A stretch of 15,628 bases of DNA, taken from a virus (taxonomy: Duplodnaviria; Heunggongvirae; Uroviricota; Caudoviricetes). The position numbers and the translations under genes are program-made. Shown here one piece after another: positions 1 through 15,628 of this stretch (position 1 is its first letter; each line of letters begins with the position of its first letter). The DNA is taken from the IMG/VR virus record IMGVR_UViG_2724679293_000002; one strand, 5' to 3'. The notes under the pieces are model-generated. The model was not told where the DNA came from and ran no database searches. It saw only the letters and a program-made list of their open reading frames with translations.

Positions 1-1
1 T

Positions 2-628
2 GCAGATACGTCCGTTCGCACAATCTCCCTGCTGCCGGCAGCCGGAGAGGCTGCTGCGCAGGGCTGGAGCATTAAGGATGGCGGAATTCAGTTGTCAGAT
101 GGTGTATTTAAGATCACCAAGCAGAGCAATAAAACCTGGTCCCTGACGCATCCGGTGGATGACGCAATTACCCTGCTGACACAGGGCGGCAGACTGACCT
201 GTAAGTTCCGCCTGTCAGGCGCACTGACCAACAATCAGTTCGGGCTGGGGATTTATCTGTATACGGATGCTCCCGTTCCTGATGGTGTGGCGATGACGGG
301 TACCGGTAATCCGTTCCTGATGTCGTACTTCACTCAGACCACTGACGGCAGAGTGAATCTGATGCATCACAGGAAAGCCGGAAACACGAAGCTGGGGGAG
401 TTCGGCGATTACGGTAACGACTGGCAGACGCTGGAGCTGGTGTTCACCGCCGGCAGTGCCACGGTTACTCCGAAACTGAATGGAGTGGCTGGCCCGGCAT
501 TCCAGGTTATAAAAGACAGTCTGACACTGGGACTGAATGCGCTGACGCTGACGGATGTTACAAAAAATGCAGCGTATGGCGTTGAGATAGAAAGTCTGAT
601 GCTGGAGATAAATGCACCGGCAGCATAA
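2..628 (+). CDS. C-terminal fragment of a larger late-region protein of unknown function; 5' end lies outside the window
   Basis: The reading frame of the 92..628 ORF stays open back to position 2 with no stop, so the listed TTG start is probably internal. The translation is beta-rich and Gly/Thr-rich, with no motif I can assign. It sits where lambdoid phages carry cargo genes between Q and the lysis cassette. Confidence 0.5.
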   Translation, partial: ADTSVRTISLLPAAGEAAAQGWSIKDGGIQLSDGVFKITKQSNKTWSLTHPVDDAITLLTQGGRLTCKFRLSGALTNNQFGLGIYLYTDAPVPDGVAMTGTGNPFLMSYFTQTTDGRVNLMHHRKAGNTKLGEFGDYGNDWQTLELVFTAGSATVTPKLNGVAGPAFQVIKDSLTLGLNALTLTDVTKNAAYGVEIESLMLEINAPAA

Positions 629-930
629 TAAAAAAAGCCAGCGACTGACCTGAAAAAGAAGACGCTGGCTAAAAGGCCTTATATGTTTGTAGAGACTTAT
701 TTTTCACAGACAGCAATGATGCCTGTCAATATATTATCAATATGCGGATTGTTTCAGTTACAGATGCCTTATTAAGGAAAAAAACAGCCAGCACTGACTT
801 TCGGTGGAGAGGTGCTGGCTCAAAAGGATAGATGTACTTCACATGTTGCTTCTATATGGCAGTACATTTTCTGACAGACAGTGACGGATGTTGTCAAGAT
901 ATTGTGTCATTTATAACCTGAATCAGGGGA
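629..930. repeat. Two diverged tandem copies of a ~150-bp non-coding module
   Basis: Copy A (~629-780) and copy B (~779-930) align block by block: aaaaaaagccagcgactgac / aaaaaaacagccagcactgac, ctggctaaaaggcc / ctggctcaaaaggat, ttttcacagacagcaatgatgcctgtcaatatatt / ttttctgacagacagtgacggatgttgtcaagatatt. Each copy has an A-run followed by an inverted repeat. Confidence 0.6.
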
Positions 931-994
931 GGCCGGAATGTTATCTGGCATTTTTAGCAGAGCCTGAATGCCATAATCACGGCTCCCGGCGTTG

Positions 995-1030
995 GCCGTC
1001 AGTGGGTGACACTGGCGGCTTTTTTGTTTT
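995..1030 (+). terminator. Rho-independent terminator-like hairpin with T-run upstream of the holin gene
   Basis: A 10-bp stem (gccgtcagtg / cactggcggc, one G-U pair) with a 5-nt loop is followed by tttttttgtttt. Confidence 0.5.
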
Positions 1031-1075
1031 TCTTTACTTTCATTTTCTGTCGGCGGTGACGGAGACATACATCAG

Positions 1076-1282
1076 ATGGAAAAAATCACAACAGGTGTGT
1101 CATACACCACGTCAGCGGTGGGGACGGGATACTGGTTACTGCAGCTGCTGGACAAAGTCTCTCCGTCCCAGTGGGTGGCAATAGGTGTGCTGGGAAGTCT
1201 GCTGTTTGGCCTGCTGACGTATCTGACAAATCTTTATTTCAAGATTAAAGAAGATAAGCGTAAGGCTGCGAGAGGTGAATAA
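1076..1282 (+). CDS. S: Phage-21-type class II holin (pinholin), 68 aa
   Basis: The sequence [22 protein letters not shown]...[36 protein letters not shown] has two transmembrane domains and a charged C-terminus, matching my recollection of S21. A GGAG Shine-Dalgarno sits 11 nt upstream, and the gene lies directly 5' of the endolysin with a 1-nt start/stop overlap. Confidence 0.9.
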
Positions 1283-1779
1283 TGTCGCCGTCATTACGCA
1301 AGGCTGTTGCAGCTGCTATTGGTGGTGGGGCTGTTGCCATAGCGTCTGTGCTCATCACTGGTCCAGGTGGTAACGATGGTCTGGAAGGTGTCAGCTACAT
1401 ACCATACAAAGATATCGTTGGCGTATGGACTGTATGTCACGGACACACCGGAAAAGACATCATGCCCGGTAAAACGTATACCGAAGCAGAATGCAAAGCC
1501 CTCCTGAATAAAGACCTTGCCACGGTCGCCAGACAAATTAACCCGTACATCAACGTCGATATACCGGAAACAACGCGCGGCGCTCTTTACTCGTTCGTTT
1601 ACAACGTGGGCGCTGGCAATTTCAGAACATCGACGCTTCTTCGCAAAATAAACCAGGGCGATATCAAAGGCGCATGTGATCAGCTACGGCGCTGGACATA
1701 CGCTGGCGGTAAGCAATGGAAAGGGCTGATGACTCGCCGCGAGATTGAGCGTGAAGTCTGTTTGTGGGGGCAACAATGA
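1282..1779 (+). CDS. R: SAR endolysin (T4-lysozyme-like muramidase, R21 type), 165 aa
   Basis: The N-terminus carries a Gly/Ala-rich signal-anchor-release segment ([23 protein letters not shown]), followed by the lysozyme catalytic region [25 protein letters not shown]. It sits between holin and spanin genes. Confidence 0.92.
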
Positions 1780-2213
1780 GCAGGGTAACCGTTATTATCT
1801 CCGCTCTGGTTATCTGCATTATCGCCTGCCTGTCATGGGCTGTTAATCATTACCGTGATAACGCCATCGCCTACAAAGAGCAGCGCGATAAAGCCACATC
1901 CATCATCGCTGATATGCAGAAGCGGCAACGTGATGTAGCAGAACTTGACGCCAGATACACAAAGGAGCTTGCTGATGCTAATGCGACTATCGAAAGTCTC
2001 CGTGCTGATGTTTCTGCTGGGCGTAAGCGCCTGCAAGTCTCCGCCACCTGTGCAAAGTCAACGACCGGAGCCAGCAGCATGGGCGATGGAGAAAGCCCAG
2101 GACTTACAGCAGATGCTGAACTCAATTATTACCGTCTCCGAGGTGGAATCGACAAGATAACCGCGCAGGTTAACTACCTGCAGGAATACATCAGGACGCA
2201 GTGCTTAAAATAA
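1776..2213 (+). CDS. Rz: Inner-membrane spanin Rz (i-spanin)
   Basis: It starts [29 protein letters not shown], an N-terminal transmembrane domain followed by a coiled-coil-like region, as in lambda Rz. ATG 1776 overlaps the R stop (ATGA); the listed ORF start at 1764 is an in-frame GTG extension. Confidence 0.85.
1975..2160 (+). CDS. Rz1: Outer-membrane lipoprotein spanin Rz1 (o-spanin), embedded in the +1 frame of Rz
   Basis: [20 protein letters not shown] has a lipobox (VSAC), followed by the proline-rich [16 protein letters not shown]. An AAGGAG Shine-Dalgarno lies 8 nt upstream of ATG 1975; ATG 1981 is an alternative start. Confidence 0.8.
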
Positions 2214-2253
2214 TTTTAATTTCACTGAAATTTAACAAGTGACTTTCAGGAAA

Positions 2254-2280
2254 ATGCCTCGCAGATGCGGGGCATTTTTG
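2254..2280 (+). terminator. Rho-independent terminator-like hairpin after the lysis cassette
   Basis: Stem atgcctcgc / gcggggcat with loop agat, followed by ttttt. Confidence 0.6.
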
Positions 2281-2362
2281 TACCGGTATTTCACCGCGCA
2301 CCGCAGCGCACAATAAACACCGAACCTGACCCTTTGGAATGGGCCTTTGAGGATACCAGTTA

Positions 2363-2980
2363 GTGCTGGCGAGCCTCGGTGGGCTGGTTTCCTGTGCGGC
2401 AAAGGTTCATTTCAAAGAAGCAGGCAACGCCATGAATGAATTAATTGCGAATCATGACTTCGACTTTCGCCAGTTAGTTACCGCAGCAGAAGGTCAACCG
2501 GTAACTGACACCTTCCAGATTGCCAGGGCATTTGGTAAACGCCATCAGCATGTGATTAGGGCTATTAAATGTTTGAGATGTTCTGAGGAATTCTCGACAA
2601 CCCATTTTGGGGCCGTCGAGAAAATCAATGACTTAGGTATTTTTGACAAGAAACAGATTTACTACCGCATGGACTTTAGTGGCTTCGTTATGCTGGTTAT
2701 GGGATTTAACGGGGCAAAAGCCGATGCTGTTAAAGAAGCCTATATCAATGCGTTTAACTGGATGTCAGCAGAACTCCGTAAGTACAGCGAAAGTTATGAA
2801 GCAGAACGTAACGCCGTAATGCTGGAGTACATGAAAGAGAAGGATGTCGCCAGCATGTCAGGCCGTCTGCTCAATCGCTGGGGGAGAACGAAAAAACCTC
2901 AATTGCTTGCAAAGCTGGAACGTCTGGAGAGACAGGGACAGTTTTTATTACCGGGATTCGATAAAGGTATTCAAGCCTGA
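2363..2980 (+). CDS. Phage regulatory protein, Rha family (pRha domain)
   Basis: The motif FGKRHQHVIRAIKCL matches the pRha signature (FGKRH.NVLRDI) as I remember it. The start is ambiguous: GTG 2363 has a GAGGA Shine-Dalgarno 10 nt upstream (205 aa), while ATG 2432 has a weak one (182 aa). Confidence 0.75.
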   Translation: MLASLGGLVSCAAKVHFKEAGNAMNELIANHDFDFRQLVTAAEGQPVTDTFQIARAFGKRHQHVIRAIKCLRCSEEFSTTHFGAVEKINDLGIFDKKQIYYRMDFSGFVMLVMGFNGAKADAVKEAYINAFNWMSAELRKYSESYEAERNAVMLEYMKEKDVASMSGRLLNRWGRTKKPQLLAKLERLERQGQFLLPGFDKGIQA

Positions 2981-3167
2981 CACATTATGCGCTGTATCGT
3001 CGCCGTATTCCCGCATTAACCATGACCGTAGCCCGACGGGGAATTCCTTCTGCGTGAGTGTGCGGGAATAATCAAAAACGATGCACACCGGGTTTTACTG
3101 TGCTGACAGACGCAGGGTTACCCTCATAGTCGCTTTTCCGGTGCGATGGTGGAAGAAACCGGGATGT

Positions 3168-3362
3168 TCATCCATCATCACTTTGGATTGATGTATATGC
3201 TCTCTTTTCTGACGTTAGTCTCCGACGGCAGGCTTCAATGACCCAGGCTGAGAAATTCCCAGACCCTTTTTGCTCAAGAGCGATGTTAATTTGTTCAATC
3301 ATTTGGTTAGGAAAGCGGATGTTGCGGGTTGTTGTTCTGCGGGTTCTGTTCTTCGTTGACAT
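3168..3362 (-). CDS. Small ribbon-helix-helix-like DNA-binding protein (YlcI-like), 64 aa
   Basis: MSTKNRTRRTTTRNIRFPNQMIEQINIALEQKGSGNFSAWVIEACRRRL reads as a basic N-terminal arm, a beta strand (IRFP), helix A, a Gly loop and helix B. A homologous small ORF lies at the extreme right end of lambda and next to nohD in DLP12, from memory. Confidence 0.7.
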   Translation of the reverse strand: MSTKNRTRRTTTRNIRFPNQMIEQINIALEQKGSGNFSAWVIEACRRRLTSEKRAYTSIQSDDG

Positions 3363-3526
3363 GAGGTTGCCCCGTATTCAGTGTCGCTGATTTGTATTGT
3401 CTGAAGTTGTTTTTACGTTAAGTTGACGCAGATCAATTAATACGATACCTGCGTCATAATTGATTATTTGACGTGGTTTGATGGCGTAGATGCACGTTGT
3501 GACATGTAGATGATAATTATTATCAT

Positions 3527-3598
3527 TTTGCGGGTCCTTTCCGGCGATCCGACAGGTTACGGGGCGGCGACCTCGCGGGTTTTCGCTATTTATGAAAA
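3527..3598. other. cos: cos site: cosQ region and cosN, with the 12-nt cohesive end GGGCGGCGACCT at 3562-3573
   Basis: gggtcctttccggcgatccgacaggttacg | GGGCGGCGACCT | cgcgggttttcgctatttatgaaaattttccgg matches the lambda right-end/left-end junction as I recall it. Confidence 0.9.
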
Positions 3599-3609
3599 TT
3601 TTCCGGGAT

Positions 3610-3711
3610 CCATGTCCGGTTTCTCTTCAAGTTAACTATATGAAAAATATAAAAACAGGTCTTCTGTGAACCGGACATGAACAAAAAACAGACATGTAAA
3701 CCGGACATGAC
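3610..3711. repeat. cosB-position repeat array: three copies of G(A/T)AACCGGACATG(A/G), one inverted and two direct
   Basis: The core CCGGACATG occurs at 3671-3679 and 3701-3709 and as its reverse complement at 3611-3619. An A-tract-rich spacer (3624-3660) separates the inverted copy from the direct copies. No lambda R-site motif (cgtttcc / ggaaacg) is present. Confidence 0.5.
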
Positions 3712-3794
3712 CGGTTTTGTTGTGATTGTGAGGTGAGAGTTTTTGCGAGGTGAGGAGTGGCTACGCAGACTGAAGTTGCCAGGCATTTAAGTCT

Positions 3795-3800
3795 NNNNNN
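3795..3800. other. Run of six ambiguous bases (N), 8 bp upstream of the Nu1 start codon
   Basis: The sequence reads gtctnnnnnnaatgaacaATG. Confidence 0.95.
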
Positions 3801-3808
3801 AATGAACA

Positions 3809-4328
3809 ATGGAAGTCAACAAAAAGCAGCTGGCTGACATTTTCGGCGCGAGTATCCGTACCATTCAGAACTGGCAGGAGCAGGGAATGCCCGTTCTGCG
3901 GGGTGGTGGCAAGGGTAATGAAGTGCTTTATGACTCTGCCGCCGCCATAAAATGGTATGCCGAAAGGGATGCTGAAATTGAGAACGAAAAGCTGCGCCGG
4001 GAAGTTGAAGAACTGCGGCAGGCCAGCGAGACAGATCTCCAGCCAGGGACTATTGAGTACGAACGCCATCGACTTACGCGTGCGCAGGCCGACGCACAGG
4101 AGCTGAAAAATGCCAGAGACTCCGCTGAAGTGGTGGAAACCGCATTCTGTACTTTCGTGCTGTCGCGGATCGCAGGTGAAATTGCCAGTATTCTCGACGG
4201 GATCCCCCTGTCGGTGCAGCGGCGTTTTCCGGAACTGGAAAACCGACATGTTGATTTCCTGAAACGGGATATCATCAAAGCCATGAACAAAGCAGCCGCG
4301 CTGGATGAACTGATACCGGGGTTGCTGA

Positions 4329-4354
<26 letters not shown>
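3809..4354 (+). CDS. nu1: Terminase small subunit Nu1 (lambda type), 181 aa
   Basis: MEVNKKQLADIFGASIRTIQNWQEQGMPVLRGGGKGNEVLYDSAA... is a winged helix-turn-helix DNA-binding domain with an ATP-binding Lys motif. Residues L40, A92 and Q97 match the lambda Nu1 positions known from cosB-suppressor genetics. Confidence 0.95.
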
Positions 4355-8035
<3,681 letters not shown>

Positions 8036-8055
<20 letters not shown>

Positions 8056-9355
8056 TCTCCCGCATATTGCCAGCATGGCTTTTAATGAGCCGCTGATGCT
8101 TGAACCCGCCTATGCGCGGGTTTTCTTTTGTGCGCTTGCAGGCCAGCTTGGGATCAGCCGCCTGACGGATGCGGTGTCCGGCGACAGCCTGACTGCCCAG
8201 GAGGCACTCGCGACGCTGGCATTATCCGGTGATGATGACGGACCACGACAGGCCCGCAGTTATCAGGTCATGAACGGCATCGCCGTGCTGCCGGTGTCCG
8301 GCACGCTGGTCAGCCGGACGCGGGCGCTGCAGCCGTACTCGGGGATGACCGGTTACAACGGCATTATCGCCCGTCTGCAACAGGCTGCCAGCGATCCGAT
8401 GGTGGACGGCATTCTGCTCGATATGGACACGCCCGGCGGGATGGTGGCGGGGGCATTTGACTGCGCTGACATCATCGCCCGTGTGCGTGACATAAAACCG
8501 GTATGGGCGCTTGCCAACGACATGAACTGCAGTGCAGGTCAGTTGCTTGCCAGTGCCGCCTCCCGGCGTCTGGTCACGCAGACCGCCCGGACAGGCTCCA
8601 TCGGCGTCATGATGGCTCACAGTAATTACGGTGCTGCGCTGGAGAAACAGGGTGTGGAAATCACGCTGATTTACAGCGGCAGCCATAAGGTGGATGGCAA
8701 CCCCTACAGCCATCTTCCGGATGACGTCCGGGAGACACTGCAGTACCGGATGGACGCAACCCGCCAGATGTTTGCGCAGAAGGTGTCGGCATATACCGGC
8801 CTGTCCGTGCAGGCTGTGCTGGATACCGAGGCTGCAGTGTACAGCGGTCAGGAGGCCATTGATGCCGGACTGGCTGATGAACTTGTTAACAGCACCGATG
8901 CGATCACCGTCATGCGTGATGCACTGGATGCACGTAAATCCCGTCTCTCAGGAGGGCGAATGACCAAAGAGACTCAATCAACAACTGTTTCAGCCACTGC
9001 TTCGCAGGCTGACGTTACTGACGTGGTGCCAGCGACGGAGGGCGAAAACGCCAGCGCGGCGCAGCCGGACGTGAACGCGCAGATCACCGCAGCGGTTGCG
9101 GCAGAAAACAGCCGCATTATGGGGATCCTCAACTGTGAGGAGGCTCACGGACGCGAAGAACAGGCACGCGTGCTGGCAGAAACCCCCGGTATGACCGTGG
9201 AAACGGCCCGCCGCATTCTGGCCGCAGCACCACAGAGTGCACAGGCGCGCAGTGACACTGCGCTGGATCGTCTGATGCAGGGTGCCCCGGCACCGCTGGC
9301 TGCAGGTAACCCGGCATCTGATGCCGTTAACGATTTGCTGAACACACCAGTGTAA
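8036..9355 (+). CDS. C: Head maturation protease / scaffold C (ClpP/SppA-like), 439 aa
   Basis: It starts at GTG 8036 (VTAELRNLPHIASMAF...), overlapping the B 3' end by 20 nt. The listed ORF start at 7901 is an upstream open-frame extension. Confidence 0.92.
8750..9355 (+). CDS. nu3: Scaffolding protein Nu3, from an in-frame internal start within C
   Basis: ATG 8750 (MDATRQMFAQKV...) is in frame with C, corresponding to lambda Nu3. Confidence 0.8.
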   Translation: MDATRQMFAQKVSAYTGLSVQAVLDTEAAVYSGQEAIDAGLADELVNSTDAITVMRDALDARKSRLSGGRMTKETQSTTVSATASQADVTDVVPATEGENASAAQPDVNAQITAAVAAENSRIMGILNCEEAHGREEQARVLAETPGMTVETARRILAAAPQSAQARSDTALDRLMQGAPAPLAAGNPASDAVNDLLNTPV

Positions 9356-9364
9356 GGGATGTTT

Positions 9365-9697
9365 ATGACGAGCAAAGAAACCTTTACCCATTACCAGCCG
9401 CTGGGCAACAGTGACCCGGCTCATACCGCAACCGCGCCCGGCGGATTGAGTGCGAAAGCGCCTGCAATGACCCCGCTGATGCTGGACACCGCCACCCGTA
9501 AGCTGGTTGCGTGGGATGGCACCACCGACGGTGCTGCCGTTGGCATTCTGGCGGTTGCTGCTGACCAGACCAGCACCACGCTGACGTTCTACAAGTCCGG
9601 CACGTTCCGTTATGAGGATGTGCTCTGGCCGGAGGCTGCCAGCGATGAGACGAAAAAACGGACCGCGTTTGCCGGAACGGCAATCAGCATCGTTTAA
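9365..9697 (+). CDS. D: Capsid decoration protein D, 110 aa
   Basis: It starts [12 protein letters not shown], with AAGGGA 5 nt upstream of ATG 9365. Confidence 0.93.
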
Positions 9698-9717
9698 CCT
9701 TACCCTTCATCACTAAA

Positions 9718-9738
9718 GGCCGCCTGTGCGGCTTTTTT
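9718..9738 (+). terminator. Stem-loop with T-run between D and E
   Basis: gccgcctgtgcggc followed by ttttttt. It lies between two equally abundant capsid genes, so it is more likely an RNA-stability or attenuator element than a strong terminator. Confidence 0.45.
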
Positions 9739-9752
9739 TACGGGATTTTTTT

Positions 9753-10778
9753 ATGTCGATGTACACAACCGCCCAGCTGCTGGCGGCAAATGAGCAGAAA
9801 TTTAAGTTTGATCCGCTGTTTCTGCGTCTCTTTTTCCGTGAGAGCTATCCCTTCACCACGGAGAAAGTCTATCTCTCACAAATTCCGGGACTGGTAAACA
9901 TGGCGCTGTACGTTTCGCCGATTGTTTCCGGTGAGGTTATCCGCTCCCGTGGCGGCTCCACCTCTGAATTTACGCCGGGATATGTCAAACCCAAGCATGA
10001 AGTGAATCCGCAGATGACCCTGCGTCGCCTGCCGGATGAAGATCCACAGAATCTGGCGGACCCGGCTTACCGCCGCCGTCGCATCATCCTGCAGAACATG
10101 CGAGACGAAGAGCTGGCCATTGCTCAGGTCGAAGAGATGCAGGCAGTTTCTGCCGTGCTTAAGGGCAAATACACCATGACCGGTGAAGCCTTCGATCCGG
10201 TTGAAGTGGATATGGGCCGCAGTGTGGCGAACAACATCACGCAGTCCGGCGGTACGGAGTGGAGCAAGCGTGACAAGTCCACGTATGACCCGACCGACGA
10301 TATCGAAGCCTACGCGCTGAACGCCAGCGGTGTGGTGAATATCATCGTGTTTGATCCGAAAGGCTGGGCGCTGTTCCGTTCCTTCAAAGCCGTCAAGGAG
10401 AAGCTGGATACCCGTCGCGGCTCTCATTCCGAGCTGGAGACAGCGGTAAAAGACCTGGGCGAAGCGGTGTCCTATAAGGGGATGTATGGCGATACGGCGA
10501 TCGTCGTGTATTCCGGACAGTACGTGGAAAACGACGTCAAAAAGAACTTCCTTCCGGACAACACGATGGTGCTGGGGAACACTCAGGCACGCGGTCTGCG
10601 CACCTATGGCTGCATTCAGGATGCGGACGCACAGCGCGAAGGTATTAACGCCTCTGCCCGCTACCCGAAAAACTGGGTGACCACCGGCGATCCGGCGCGT
10701 GAGTTCACCATGATTCAGTCAGCACCGCTGATGCTGCTGGCTGACCCTGATGCGTTCGTGTCCGTACAACTGGCGTAA
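9753..10778 (+). CDS. E: Major capsid protein E, 341 aa
   Basis: It starts MSMYTTAQLLAANEQKFKFDPLFLRLFF; length and position match lambda gpE. Confidence 0.95.
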   Translation: MSMYTTAQLLAANEQKFKFDPLFLRLFFRESYPFTTEKVYLSQIPGLVNMALYVSPIVSGEVIRSRGGSTSEFTPGYVKPKHEVNPQMTLRRLPDEDPQNLADPAYRRRRIILQNMRDEELAIAQVEEMQAVSAVLKGKYTMTGEAFDPVEVDMGRSVANNITQSGGTEWSKRDKSTYDPTDDIEAYALNASGVVNIIVFDPKGWALFRSFKAVKEKLDTRRGSHSELETAVKDLGEAVSYKGMYGDTAIVVYSGQYVENDVKKNFLPDNTMVLGNTQARGLRTYGCIQDADAQREGINASARYPKNWVTTGDPAREFTMIQSAPLMLLADPDAFVSVQLA

Positions 10779-10780
10779 TC

Positions 10781-10810
10781 ATGGCCCTTCGGGGCCATTT
10801 TCTCTCTGTG
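10781..10810 (+). terminator. UUCG-tetraloop hairpin with U-rich tail immediately after E
   Basis: atggccc-ttcg-gggccat followed by tttctctct. Confidence 0.45.
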
Positions 10811-10819
10811 GAGGAGTCC

Positions 10820-11215
10820 ATGACGAAAGATGAACTGATTGCCCGTCTTCAGGTGCTGGGTGAGCAACTGAACCGTGATGTCAGCCTGACGGGGACGAAA
10901 GAAGAACTGGCACTCCGTGTGGCAGAGCTGGAAGAGGAGCTTGATGACACGGATGACGCTGCCGGTCAGGACACGTCTGTCAGCCCGGAAAATGCGCTGA
11001 CCGGACATGAAAATGAGGTTGTATCAGCGCAGCCGGATACCGTGACTGATACGGCTGATCTGGTCACGGTTGTGGCACTGGTGACGCTGCATACTGATGC
11101 ACTTCACGCCACGCGGGATGAGGCTGTGGCATTTGTGCTGCCGGGAACGGCGTTCCGTGTCTCTGCCGGTGTGGCAGCTGAAATGACAGAGCGCGGCCTG
11201 GCCAGAATGCAATAA
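10820..11215 (+). CDS. FI: DNA packaging protein FI, 131 aa
   Basis: It starts MTKDELIARLQVLGEQLNRD, with an acidic central linker as in lambda gpFI. Confidence 0.9.
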   Translation: MTKDELIARLQVLGEQLNRDVSLTGTKEELALRVAELEEELDDTDDAAGQDTSVSPENALTGHENEVVSAQPDTVTDTADLVTVVALVTLHTDALHATRDEAVAFVLPGTAFRVSAGVAAEMTERGLARMQ

Positions 11216-11226
11216 CGGGAGGCGCT

Positions 11227-11601
11227 GTGGCTGATTTCGATAACCTGTTCGATGCTGCCATTGCCTGCGCCGATGAAACGATACGCGGGTACATGGGAAC
11301 GTCAGCCACCATGACATCCGGTGAGCAGTCCGGTGCTGTGATACGTGGTGTTTTTGATGACCCTGAAAATATCAGCTATGCCGGACAGGGCGTGCGCGTT
11401 GAAGGCTCCAGCCCGTCCCTGTTTGTCCGGACTGATGATGTGCGGCAGCTGCGGCGCGGCGACACGCTGACCATCGGTGAGGAAAACTTCTGGATAGACC
11501 GGATTTCGCCGGATGATGGCGGAAGCTGTCATCTCTGGCTTGGGCGGGGCGTACCGCCTGCCGTTAACCGTCGCCGCTGGAAGGGGGATGTATGGCCATA
11601 A
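11227..11601 (+). CDS. FII: Head-tail connector protein FII, 124 aa (about 7 aa longer than lambda FII)
   Basis: MADFDNLFDAAIACADETIRGYMG... The frame reads ...PAVNRRR-W-KGDVWP-stop, with TGG at 11578-11580 where I recall lambda having the TGA stop. Confidence 0.85.
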   Translation: MADFDNLFDAAIACADETIRGYMGTSATMTSGEQSGAVIRGVFDDPENISYAGQGVRVEGSSPSLFVRTDDVRQLRRGDTLTIGEENFWIDRISPDDGGSCHLWLGRGVPPAVNRRRWKGDVWP

Positions 11602-12170
11602 AAGGTCTTGAGCAGGCCGTTGAAAACCTCAGCCGTATCAGCAGAACGGCGGTGCCCGGTGCCGCCGCAATGGCCATTAACCGCGTTGCTTCATCCGCGA
11701 TATCGCAGTCGGTGTCACAGGTTGCCCGTGAGACAAAGGTACGCCGGAAACTGGTAAAGGAAAGGGCCAGGCTGAAAAGGGCCACGGTCAAAAATCCGCA
11801 GGCCAGAATCAAGGTTAACCGGGGGGATTTGCCCGTAATCAAGCTGGGTAATGCGCGGGTTGTCCTTTCGCGCCGCAGGCGTCGTAAAAAGGGGCAGCGT
11901 TCATCCCTGAAAGGTGGCGGCAGCGTGCTTGTGGTGGGTAACCGTCGTATTCCCGGCGCGTTTATTCAGCAACTGAAAAATGGCCGGTGGCATGTTATGC
12001 AGCGTGTGGCCGGGAAAAACCGTTACCCCATTGATGTGGTGAAAATCCCGATGGCGGTGCCGCTGACCACGGCGTTTAAACAAAATATTGAGCGGATACG
12101 GCGTGAACGTCTTCCGAAAGAGCTGGGCTATGCGCTGCAGCATCAACTGAGGATGGTAATAAAGCGATGA
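11592..12170 (+). CDS. Z: Tail completion protein Z, 192 aa
   Basis: It starts MAIKGLEQAVENLSRIS; length and position match lambda gpZ. Confidence 0.93.
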   Translation: MAIKGLEQAVENLSRISRTAVPGAAAMAINRVASSAISQSVSQVARETKVRRKLVKERARLKRATVKNPQARIKVNRGDLPVIKLGNARVVLSRRRRRKKGQRSSLKGGGSVLVVGNRRIPGAFIQQLKNGRWHVMQRVAGKNRYPIDVVKIPMAVPLTTAFKQNIERIRRERLPKELGYALQHQLRMVIKR

Positions 12171-12562
12171 AACATACTGAACTCCGTGCAGCCGTACTGG
12201 ATGCACTGGAGAAGCATGACACCGGGGCGACGTTTTTTGATGGTCGCCCCGCTGTTTTTGATGAGGCGGATTTTCCGGCAGTTGCCGTTTATCTCACCGG
12301 CGCTGAATACACGGGCGAAGAGCTGGACAGCGATACCTGGCAGGCGGAGCTGCATATCGAAGTTTTCCTGCCTGCTCAGGTGCCGGATTCAGAGCTGGAT
12401 GCGTGGATGGAGTCCCGGATTTATCCGGTGATGAGCGATATCCCGGCACTGTCAGAGTTGATCACCAGTATGGTGGCCAGTGGCTATGACTACCGACGCG
12501 ACGATGATGCGGGCCTGTGGAGTTCAGCCGATCTGACTTATGTCATTACCTATGAAATGTGA
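12167..12562 (+). CDS. U: Tail terminator protein U, 131 aa
   Basis: It starts [18 protein letters not shown]; ATGA overlap with Z. Confidence 0.93.
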
Positions 12563-12569
12563 GGACGCT

Positions 12570-13310
12570 ATGCCTGTACCAAATCCTGTAATGCCGGTGA
12601 AAGGTGCCGGGACCACCCTGTGGGTTTATAAGGGGAGCGGTGACCCTTATGCGAATCCGCTTTCAGACGTTGACTGGTCGCGTCTGGCAAAAGTTAAAGA
12701 CCTGACGCCCGGCGAACTGACCGCTGAGTCCTATGACGACAGCTATCTCGATGATGAAGATGCGGACTGGACTGCGACCGGGCAGGGGCAGAAATCAGCC
12801 GGAGATACCAGCTTCACGCTGGCGTGGATGCCCGGAGAGCAGGGGCAGCAGGCGCTGCTGGCGTGGTTTAATGAAGGTGATACCCGTGCCTATAAAATCC
12901 GCTTCCCGAACGGCACGGTCGATGTGTTCCGTGGCTGGGTCAGCAGTATCGGTAAAGCGGTGACGGCGAAGGAAGTGATCACCCGCACGGTGAAGGTCAC
13001 CAATGTGGGACGCCCGTCGATGGCAGAAGATCGCAGCACGGTCACAGCGGCAACCGGCATGACCGTGACGCCTGCCAGCACCTCGGTGGTGAAAGGGCAG
13101 AGCACCACGCTGACCGTGGCATTCCAGCCGGAAGGCGCAACCGACAAGAGCTTCCGTGCGGTGTCTGCGGATAAAACAAAAGCCACCGTGTCGGTCAGTG
13201 GTATGACCATCACCGTGAAAGGTGTTGCTGCAGGCAAGGTCAACATTCCGGTCGTATCCGGTAATGGTGAACTTGCTGCGGTTGCAGAAATCACTGTCAC
13301 CGACAGTTAA
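12570..13310 (+). CDS. V: Major tail tube protein V, 246 aa, with C-terminal Ig-like domain
   Basis: ATG 12570 ([22 protein letters not shown]...) has a GAGGA Shine-Dalgarno upstream. The listed start at 12540 is an upstream extension. Confidence 0.93.
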
Positions 13311-13325
13311 TCCGGAGAGTCAGCG

Positions 13326-13748
13326 ATGTTCCTGAAAACCGAATCATTTGAACATAACGGCGTGACCGTCACGCTTTCTGAACTTTCAGCCCTGCAGCGT
13401 ATTGAGCATCTCGCCCTGATGAAACGGCAGGCAGAACAGGCGGAGTCAGACAGCAACCGGAAGTTTACAGTGGAAGACGCCATCAGAACCGGTGCTTTTG
13501 TGGTGGCGATGTCCCTGTGGCATAACCATCCGCAGAAGACAAAGCAGCCTTCCATGAATGAAGCCGTTAAACAGATTGAGCAGGAAGTGCTTACCACCTG
13601 GCCCACAGAGGCAATTTCTCATGCTGAAAACGTGGTGTACCGGCTGTCCGGTATGTATGAGTTTGTGGTGAATGATGCCCCTGAACAGGCAGAGGACGCC
13701 GGGCCTGCAGAGCCTGTTTCTGCGGGAAAGTGTTCGACGGTGAGCTGA
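13326..13748 (+). CDS. G: Tail assembly chaperone G, 140 aa
   Basis: It starts MFLKTESFEHNGVTVTLSEL. Confidence 0.92.
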   Translation: MFLKTESFEHNGVTVTLSELSALQRIEHLALMKRQAEQAESDSNRKFTVEDAIRTGAFVVAMSLWHNHPQKTKQPSMNEAVKQIEQEVLTTWPTEAISHAENVVYRLSGMYEFVVNDAPEQAEDAGPAEPVSAGKCSTVS

Positions 13749-14164
13749 GTTTTGCCCTGAAACTGGCGCGCGAGATGGGGCGACCCGACTGGCGTGCCAT
13801 GCTTGCCGGGATGTCATCCACGGAGTATGCCGACTGGCACCGCTTTTACAGTACCCATTATTTTCATGATGTTCTGCTGGATATGCACTTTTCCGGGCTG
13901 ACGTACACCGTGCTCAGCCTGTTTTTCAGCGATCCGGATATGCATCCGCTGGATTTCAGTCTGCTGAACCGGCGTGAGGCTGACGAAGAGCCTGAAGATG
14001 ATGTGCTGATGCAGAAAGCGGCAGGGCTTGCCGGAGGCGTCCGCTTTGGCCCGGACGGGAATGAAGTTATCCCCGCTTCCCCGGATGTGGCGGACATGAC
14101 GGAGGATGACGTAATGCTGATGACAGTATCAGAAGGGATCGCAGGAGGAGTCCGGTATGGCTGA
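13326..14164 (+). CDS. T: Tail assembly chaperone G-T fusion made by programmed -1 ribosomal frameshift
   Basis: The slippery heptamer G GGA AAG lies at 13724-13730 near the end of G; the -1 frame continues as the 13730..14164 ORF (VFDGELSFALKLAREMG...). Confidence 0.85.
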
Positions 14165-15628
14165 ACCGGTAGGCGATCTGGTCGTTGATTTAAGTCTGGA
14201 TGCGGCCAGATTTGACGAGCAGATGGCCAGAGTCAGGCGTCATTTTTCCGGTACGGAAAGTGATGCGAAAAAAACAGCGGCAGTCGTTGAACAGTCGCTG
14301 AGCCGACAGGCGCTGGCTGCACAGAAAGCGGGGATTTCCGTCGGGCAGTATAAAGCCGCCATGCGTATGCTGCCTGCACAGTTCACCGACGTGGCCACGC
14401 AGCTTGCAGGCGGGCAAAGTCCGTGGCTGATCCTGCTGCAACAGGGGGGGCAGGTGAAGGACTCCTTCGGCGGGATGATCCCCATGTTCAGGGGGCTTGC
14501 CGGTGCGATCACCCTGCCGATGGTGGGGGCCACCTCGCTGGCGGTGGCGACCGGTGCGCTGGCGTATGCCTGGTATCAGGGCAACTCAACCCTGTCCGAT
14601 TTCAACAAAACGCTGGTCCTTTCCGGCAATCAGGCGGGACTGACGGCAGATCGTATGCTGGTCCTGTCCAGAGCCGGGCAGGCGGCAGGGCTGACGTTTA
14701 ACCAGACCAGCGAGTCACTCAGCGCACTGGTTAAGGCGGGGGTAAGCGGTGAGGCTCAGATTGCGTCCATCAGCCAGAGTGTGGCGCGTTTCTCCTCTGC
14801 ATCCGGCGTGGAGGTGGACAAGGTCGCTGAAGCCTTCGGGAAGCTGACCACAGACCCGACGTCGGGGCTGACGGCGATGGCACGCCAGTTCCATAACGTG
14901 ACGGCGGAGCAGATTGCGTATGTTGCTCAGTTGCAGCGTTCCGGCGATGAAGCCGGGGCATTGCAGGCGGCGAACGAGGCCGCAACGAAAGGGTTTGATG
15001 ACCAGACCCGCCGCCTGAAAGAGAACATGGGCACGCTGGAGACCTGGGCAGACAGGACTGCGCGGGCCTTCAAATCCATGTGGGATGCGGTGCTGGATAT
15101 TGGTCGTCCTGATACCGCGCAGGAGATGCTGATTAAGGCAGAGGCTGCGTTTAAGAAAGCAGACGACATCTGGAATCTGCGCAAGGATGATTATTTTGTT
15201 AACGATGAAGCGCGGGCGCGTTACTGGGATGATCGTGAAAAGGCCCGTCTTGCGCTTGAAGCCGCCCGAAAGAAGGCTGAGCAGCAGACTCAACAGGACA
15301 AAAATGCGCAGCAGCAGAGCGATACCGAAGCGTCACGGCTGAAATATACCGAAGAGGCGCAGAAGGCTTACAAACGGCTGCAGACGCCGCTGGAGAAATA
15401 TACCGCCCGTCAGGAAGAACTGAACAAGGCACTGAAAGACGGGAAAATCCTGCAGGCGGATTACAACACGCTGATGGCGGCGGCGAAAAAGGATTATGAA
15501 GCGACGCTGAAAAAGCCGAAACAGTCCGGCGTGAAGGTGTCTGCGGGCGATCGTCAGGAAGACAGTGCTCATGCTGCCCTGCTGACGCTTCAGGCAGAAC
15601 TCCGGACGCTGGAGAAGCATGCCGGAGC
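14157..15628 (+). CDS. H: Tail tape-measure protein H, N-terminal part; continues beyond the window end
   Basis: ATG 14157 (MAEPVGDLVVDLSLDAARFDEQMARVRRHF...) opens a frame with no stop to the window end. It is absent from the ORF track because it has no stop. Translation is Ala/Gln/Lys-rich and coiled-coil-like. Confidence 0.9.
   Translation, partial: MAEPVGDLVVDLSLDAARFDEQMARVRRHFSGTESDAKKTAAVVEQSLSRQALAAQKAGISVGQYKAAMRMLPAQFTDVATQLAGGQSPWLILLQQGGQVKDSFGGMIPMFRGLAGAITLPMVGATSLAVATGALAYAWYQGNSTLSDFNKTLVLSGNQAGLTADRMLVLSRAGQAAGLTFNQTSESLSALVKAGVSGEAQIASISQSVARFSSASGVEVDKVAEAFGKLTTDPTSGLTAMARQFHNVTAEQIAYVAQLQRSGDEAGALQAANEAATKGFDDQTRRLKENMGTLETWADRTARAFKSMWDAVLDIGRPDTAQEMLIKAEAAFKKADDIWNLRKDDYFVNDEARARYWDDREKARLALEAARKKAEQQTQQDKNAQQQSDTEASRLKYTEEAQKAYKRLQTPLEKYTARQEELNKALKDGKILQADYNTLMAAAKKDYEATLKKPKQSGVKVSAGDRQEDSAHAALLTLQAELRTLEKHAG

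Follow-up and report, generated by a model that had tools for sequence, protein, structure and literature searches.

The segment spanning nt 3607–3794 of the 15628-nt stretch of viral DNA analysed here (the whole of which we call the window) is a cosB that occurs naturally in a widespread class of λ-like cos prophages. We put at approximately 85% the probability that this block is a cosB of a Gifsy-1-like class and that its pairing with a λ-type Nu1 gene in the window is the product of a scaffold-type false join of two prophages at a run of six Ns, an origin that we infer to be technical. The preliminary description of this DNA had rightly seen nt 3599–3794 as a non-λ cosB, but had overlooked that nt 3757–3794 are the start of a terS gene. 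One of the three readings that it offered, namely an R3–spacer–R2–R1 logic of the block's own with a different recognition sequence, is right, but the block is a common natural cosB with a cognate terminase and not a non-canonical site for λ Nu1.

The part of the window to the left of the block is shared with λ-type prophages. The λ cohesive end that had been reported, GGGCGGCGACCT, was found where it had been placed, and this 12-mer is common to the λ-type loci (L002–L012) and the block-type loci (L001 and L003). The upstream heptamer GGGTCCT is taken, by comparison with λ, to be cosQ. The 7 bp cosQ is highly conserved (PMC4669245), and GGGTCCTTTC, upstream of the cohesive end, is kept in relatives from Klebsiella, Salmonella and Enterobacter. 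The assignment of this region as a canonical lambdoid cosQ/cosN was sound, but not its end at nt 3598, as identity to λ-type cos extends to nt 3606. Further upstream, the lysis cassette and the Rha-family and YlcI/YnfO genes all agree with the annotation of DEC9B. The positions of all of these features, and of those described below, are given in Table 1.

Table 1. Features of the window from the lysis cassette to the terminase large subunit gene (bp values are counted from the left cohesive end)
Feature	Position (nt)	Strand	Remarks
Lysis cassette	1076–2213		Class II holin (68 aa), lysozyme (165 aa) and Rz-like protein (145–149 aa)
Rha-family gene	2363–2980		After the lysis cassette
YlcI/YnfO gene	3168–3362	−	
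Presumed cosQ core, GGGTCCT	3532–3538	+	Within a stretch 99% shared with λ-type prophages
cosN cohesive end, GGGCGGCGACCT	3562–3573	+	Identical to λ
R3-equivalent candidate terminase site, CATGTCCGGTTT	3611–3622	+	bp 50–61
I1-equivalent IHF-like site, TTTCATATAGTTA	3633–3645	−	bp 72–84; 2 mismatches to WATCAANNNNTTR
R2-equivalent candidate site, inverted	3668–3679	−	CATGTCCGGTTC on the minus strand; bp 107–118
Degenerate repeat copy, CATGTCTGTTTT	3685–3696	−	2 mismatches
R1-equivalent region, near-palindrome	3698–3717		(−) copy CATGTCCGGTTT at 3698–3709 overlaps (+) copy CATGACCGGTTT at 3706–3717
Direct repeat TTG(T/C)GAGGTGAG, two copies	3726–3754	+	GAGGTGAG at 3730–3737 and 3747–3754
Start of cognate 169-aa terminase small-subunit gene	3757–3794	+	First 38 nt (MATQTEVARHLS + 2 nt); cut by the N-run
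NNNNNN	3795–3800		Sole N-run in the window; only junction of two prophage sequences
λ-type Nu1 (TerS), 181 aa	3809–4354	+	ATG at 3809; native leader of just 8 nt
λ-type terminase large subunit, gpA	4329–6254	+	GpA_ATPase and GpA_nuclease domains

In place of the λ R sites, the block carries repeats of the CATGTCCGGTT type. A search of the window for CATGTCCGGTTT with up to 2 mismatches returned eight matches against 1.25 expected, a number that none of 200 shuffles reached, and five of these eight matches fall within nt 3611–3717. The three copies noted in the preliminary description were recovered, one on the plus and two on the minus strand, as was the GAGGTGAG direct repeat, but its inventory had missed the (+) copy CATGACCGGTTT and the degenerate (−) copy. 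Its statement that the λ R motif is missing was also borne out, as CGTTTCCNTTCT has no match at ≤2 mismatches anywhere near cos. The R2-equivalent is inverted relative to the R3-equivalent, an arrangement conserved in all relatives. At the third site a (+) copy exists, but the (−) copy is the one that is conserved, being found in Enterobacter and Klebsiella relatives with the long cosB and missing from short two-site versions. The degenerate copy is variable among natural variants and is probably non-functional as a site. The first copy of the GAGGTGAG repeat is dispensable, because it is deleted in the natural variant L020, whereas the second copy, lying just 5′ of GTG 3757, occupies what by its position would be a ribosome-binding site. 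One further repeat copy with 2 mismatches, CATGTCGGTTTT at nt 4239–4250 (−), lies inside the λ-type Nu1 gene and is probably due to chance.

Read from GTG 3757, the frame in the window gives VATQTEVARHLSLXXMNNGSQQKAAG*. Of the cognate terS, the window has just the first 38 nt, and the complete TerS gene that comes next is λ-type. In natural genomes, by contrast, ...CATTTAAGTCT is followed by GACCGATCGCC..., forming a 169-aa TerS; in L001 and L003, where the block runs into this protein, the annotated CDS starts at the base equivalent to GTG 3757 of the window. At least 583 records match nt 3599–3794 with 100% identity. The block was found in 1160 of the 5426 E. coli genomes that are complete, a share of approximately one-fifth for this packaging class, and lies under or beside an annotated ‘terminase small subunit’. 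Among 123 natural instances of cosN with a block-type R3, λ Nu1 came next in none. The class is also represented in PhiR12 phage records (listed hosts K-12 or E. coli C), in which the block-type TerS is 99.4% and the cosB 92.5% identical. A literature search for this packaging class found no description of it and no binding data for its cosB, and text searches for the motif or the TerS N-terminus returned chance primer matches only; the class would be the third or fourth packaging-specificity class among λ-like cos phages. In the IMG/VR loci L014, L015, L022, L023 and L029 the block-type cosB ends right after the third site (..CCGGACAT) and is followed by unrelated DNA with no terS; these loci are probably deletion derivatives in cryptic prophages.

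The cognate TerS of the block (P0001) has 169 residues and begins MATQTEVARHLSLTDRQLRRLQKLPGAP.../MATQTEVARHLSLTDRQLRRLQK... (MATQTEVARHL...). We predict that it consists of a Nu1-like body, for oligomerization and TerL binding, preceded by a different N-terminal winged-helix domain, because Pfam Phage_Nu1 covers residues 49–150 only, leaving the first ~48 residues unmatched by the profile, because the BLASTP alignment with the Nu1 of the window begins at residue 73, and because a comparison with the solved TerS structures in the PDB gave no sequence match. In an AlphaFold model of TerS (pLDDT 76), helices at residues 4–10 and 15–22 are followed by a loop (23–37) and a helix (38–54), and residue 20 would accordingly be expected in the second helix (15–22) of a predicted helix-turn-helix plus wing layout. 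A fold search with this model gave winged helices of MerR, excisionase and RacA as top matches, with λ TerS (6hn7) among the matches, the best E value of 0.46 not being significant. Full-length homologues with 60–80% identity are found in Klebsiella, Salmonella, Citrobacter and Enterobacter. In this class, cosB forms with the ~48 initial codons of terS a cassette that moves as a unit, between a shared cosN and a shared Nu1-like body. K-12 Qin, which had been suggested beforehand as a comparator and which the UniRef name of the 169-aa protein (‘prophage Qin Nu1-like’) suggested as a source, was rejected: its nohA and cosB are λ-type, and nohA does not match the block.

To compare the architecture of the sites, the upstream regions of 11 loci of the family from Escherichia, Klebsiella, Salmonella, Citrobacter and Enterobacter were examined. 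An R3-equivalent (+) site at bp 49–53 from the cohesive end and an R2-equivalent (−) site at bp 106–110 were present in all 11, whereas the third (−) site, at bp 136–150, is limited to the long cosB versions (~194 bp), the short versions (144–158 bp) having two sites. The Salmonella-type loci L160, L170, L174 and L176 are of the short kind, with the start codon 144–158 bp from the cohesive end and two clear sites only, which suggests that the third site may be dispensable. A match to the IHF consensus (0–2 mismatches) was found on the minus strand at bp 72–75 in nine of ten family loci, and at bp 82–83 in the Enterobacter locus; the match has 0–1 mismatch in seven of the ten and is perfect in four of the nine with a match at bp 72–75. 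The λ-type locus L002 has a 2-mismatch match at bp 74, with a score equal to that of the window. Of the cosB-like R3–I1–R2–R1 layout that had been proposed from the window, the positions of R3, the IHF-like site and R2 are kept across the relatives.

The site sequence also varies in step with the protein. TerS residue 20 is R with ..ATGTCCGG in five of five lineages (L003, L141, L166, L170 and L172) and D or N with ..(T/C)TTCCGG in five of five others (L163, L168, L174, L160 and L176), so that residue 20 (R compared with D/N) and the base at position 4 of the repeat (CATG compared with CATT/CACT) change together in ten of ten lineages, which are related and do not represent independent events. 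This covariation suggests that recognition involves a specific contact here and that the class contains sub-specificities, and it parallels the work on λ and 21, where residue 20 is also involved. It supports, but does not prove, the view that the repeats of the block are terminase sites that TerS would bind. The likeliest mechanism is that of λ, in which case a TerS dimer would bind R3 (bp 50, +) and the inverted R2 (bp 107), the two being bridged across an IHF-bent spacer (I1, bp 72), with the third site at bp 137 as an accessory that may assist binding; bound in this manner, TerS would place the large subunit to nick cosN.

The block resembles the λ cosB in several respects. The two have the same cosQ and cosN, R3 begins at bp 50 (bp 50–65 in λ; PMC9026076), an IHF-like site lies at approximately bp 72–74, an inverted R2 follows ~55 bp further on and then a third site, the terS start codon is at bp 196 as compared with 191 in λ, and the body of the block's TerS, like gpNu1, falls within Pfam Phage_Nu1. 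It differs from λ in its recognition sequence, which is CATGTCCGGTT rather than CGTTTCC(G/T)TTCT, in the first ~48 residues of its TerS, which lie outside the Nu1 profile, and apparently in the orientation of its third site, the conserved copy of which is parallel to R2 (+ − −) and not, as in λ, opposed to it (+ − +). Gifsy-1 is listed among the λ-like phages with a complex cosB (PMC9026076, Feiss and co-workers), and its cohesive end differs from that of λ at positions 8, 9 and 11 (PMC4669245). Comparing Gifsy-1 by its published description and via Salmonella relatives, we assign the block provisionally to a Gifsy-1-like class: the Salmonella members of the TerS family have 65–70% full-length identity, with R3 and R2 at the same positions, and the cohesive end of Salmonella L160, GGGCGGCAGCGT, departs from λ at the same three positions (8, 9 and 11). 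In contrast, the window has the cohesive end of λ and combines ATGTCCGG with R20 in TerS, whereas the L160 type has ATTTCCGG with N20, and the Salmonella loci have two clear sites only in a cosB of 144–158 bp.

Phage 21 had likewise been suggested as a comparator. The PDB contains three Nu1-like DNA-binding domains, one of which, 7lwr, matches λ Nu1 with an E value of 3.6e-14 and is that of phage 21 gp1. P0001 is unlike this domain, and we rejected the block as a phage 21 cosB on that footing. Common to the two systems are an identical cosQ/cosN, a cosB of the complex kind and a TerS recognition helix that is specific to the phage, but this helix is of the RTIERWQS type in phage 21 and DRQLRRLQK in the block's TerS. 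Residue 20 matters for specificity in phage 21 too (PMC4669245). The cos of Rpp-dependent PICIs also has a λ-like cosQ/cosN, after which comes a cosB that escapes recognition by the helper TerS (PMC6739421, PMC9026076); however, it has a single R3-like site with no I1, R2 or R1, and then rpp, whereas the block has at least three repeats and an IHF-like site, and then the start of terS.

The right half of the window is λ-type throughout. Its Nu1 matches Pfam Phage_Nu1 at positions 1–164 (E = 5.5e-101), and residues 1–45 are identical to λ TerS in PDB entries 6hn7 and 1j9i, in agreement with the λ specificity that had been attributed to this domain. In all 11 natural loci encoding exactly this Nu1, the λ sites R3, R2 and R1 lie upstream. 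λ-like head and tail genes follow gpA up to the end of the window, and nt 3801–15628 are 100% identical to many O26:H11 genomes, in which a λ cosB precedes. Many O26:H11 genomes (L005, L011 and L012) have an ISCro1 (IS66-like) insertion after the position of nt 8497, in the head protease/scaffold gene; the window is without ISCro1.

The left half is equally well matched, but elsewhere: nt 1–3794 are 100% identical to the closed genomes DEC9B, F2_407_2_2 and 7_33_46A, where the sequence continues into the 169-aa terS. The block ends, as had been described, in six Ns, and these are the sole N-run in 15.6 kb. In the window the N-run is flanked by ...AAGTCT on the left and AATGAACAATGG on the right; in natural loci GACCGATCGCC comes after ...AAGTCT, and in natural λ-type loci ...GTCCGTGG directly precedes AATGAACA. 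A distance of ~273–283 kb separates the block from the right half in strains 2013C-4225 and 2013C-3513, where they belong to two different prophages. Nucleotides 3400–4400 were found in one piece in none of the 5426 complete E. coli genomes, and the junction pattern, with 0–30 free bases allowed, gave no matches in GTDB representative genomes, IMG/VR or JGI metagenomes; as a control, the pattern matched the window itself in a local search, the Ns being no obstacle there. The earlier suggestion that the Ns hide a joint is the one that these data support: the two sides match two different natural prophages, both at 100% identity, and the junction was found nowhere else.

Natural recombinants between the two classes exist and are built differently. 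In L010, a left arm 99.8% identical to that of the window leads, by a crossover within the shared cosQ/cosN and before cosB, to a λ cosB with Nu1. The closed E. coli genome CP110097.1 (GCA_025960265.1; L179 and L180) has two prophages whose 3.7-kb lysis–Rha–YlcI–cosQ/cosN arms are 98.5% identical, one arm leading to a λ cosB and Nu1 and the other to a block-type cosB and the 169-aa TerS, with the exchange point at the base after TTTTCCGG. These recombinants show that selection keeps cosB with its own TerS. The near-identical left arms of CP110097.1 also constitute a repeat structure that short reads cannot resolve. In addition, a partial protein on nine draft contigs (P0008) begins at codon 13 of the block-type terS, which is where the left half of the window ends.

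We therefore read the coincidence of the N-run with a switch of parentage as a join and not as biology, and we advise against treating the mismatch of cosB and Nu1 as a feature of this DNA in later work. The join would be between a block-class prophage cut 38 nt into its terminase gene and a λ-type prophage starting 8 nt before Nu1, and would most probably have arisen when short reads of an O26-like strain were assembled into scaffolds; two prophages of such a strain can share a near-identical 3.7-kb left arm and cosQ/cosN. Certain observations count against a scaffold join: no repeat boundary at nt 3801 (λ bp 183) is evident among the aligned λ-type loci, a gap of six Ns does not correspond to any standard size used in scaffolding, and a λ-type prophage looked for at argU in DEC9B and F2_407_2_2, two of the genomes with a 100% match to the left half, was not there, the site being empty in both. 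The two halves, each at 100%, were matched in separate complete genomes and not in one.

Other explanations of the pairing were weighed against the false join. It is improbable, in our judgement, that the window represents a real prophage formed by an illegitimate recombination or a deletion that placed the block cosB and 38 nt of terS next to a λ-type Nu1, leaving it mismatched and packaging-defective unless helped in trans. The sequence as given does read so, EHEC-type genomes hold several prophages of both classes that are able to recombine, and natural truncated cos remnants are known (L014, L015, L022, L023 and L029), but the parental sequences have no homology at the junction, the switch of parentage falls exactly on the sole Ns in 15.6 kb, the junction turned up neither in the 5426 complete E. 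coli genomes nor in the three large collections, and both sides are 100% identical to intact prophages, whereas some divergence would be expected of an element in decay. The packaging-defective, mismatched prophage of the preliminary description finds no support that is independent of the join. Were the junction real, the prophage might, with its cosB of one class and TerS of another, be mobilized only when a co-resident prophage gives the matching 169-aa TerS in trans; we hold this to be very improbable, but if true it would be a phage-level analogue of Rpp island piracy and would require the 169-aa TerS to work with a λ-type large subunit.

We also see only a slim chance that cosB was exchanged on purpose, either at the bench, as in the cosB-swap chimeras of Fillol-Salom et al. 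(2019), or in silico, in which case the Ns would be the scar left behind. The replaced segment coincides almost exactly with the λ cosB, beginning at the base that follows ...TTTTCCGG and ending 8 nt upstream of the Nu1 ATG, and chimaeric cosB prophages have been made experimentally (PMC6739421); however, the flanks are wild O26-type prophage DNA and not laboratory λ or ϕ80, a designed construct would not bring along 38 nt of coding sequence from a foreign terS, nor leave 6 nt undefined where the Nu1 ribosome-binding site lies, and no such construct was found in the literature searched. That the block is a non-canonical site usable by the λ-type Nu1, the phage being functional as written, we consider extremely improbable. 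Cross-packaging has a precedent, in that N15 terminase packages λ DNA (PMC4669245), and the DNA-binding domain of λ TerS binds specific and non-specific DNA about equally in vitro (PMC9026076). Nevertheless, the DNA-binding domain of the window Nu1 is identical to that of λ and the block has no λ R motif within 2 mismatches; λ and 21 are far less different than this pair and yet discriminate by more than 1000-fold (PMC4669245); a block-type cosB occurs with a Nu1-type domain in 0 of 123 natural instances; and the site sequence follows residue 20 of its own TerS.

The proposed false join at the N-run may be set beside a further record from a similar region. Locus L068 (IMGVR_UViG_2695420739_000008; 7991 bp) has two cos–cosB–terS starts, at 1897 and 7359, which are 5.4 kb apart, together with a single N at 2292, and looks like another assembly oddity.
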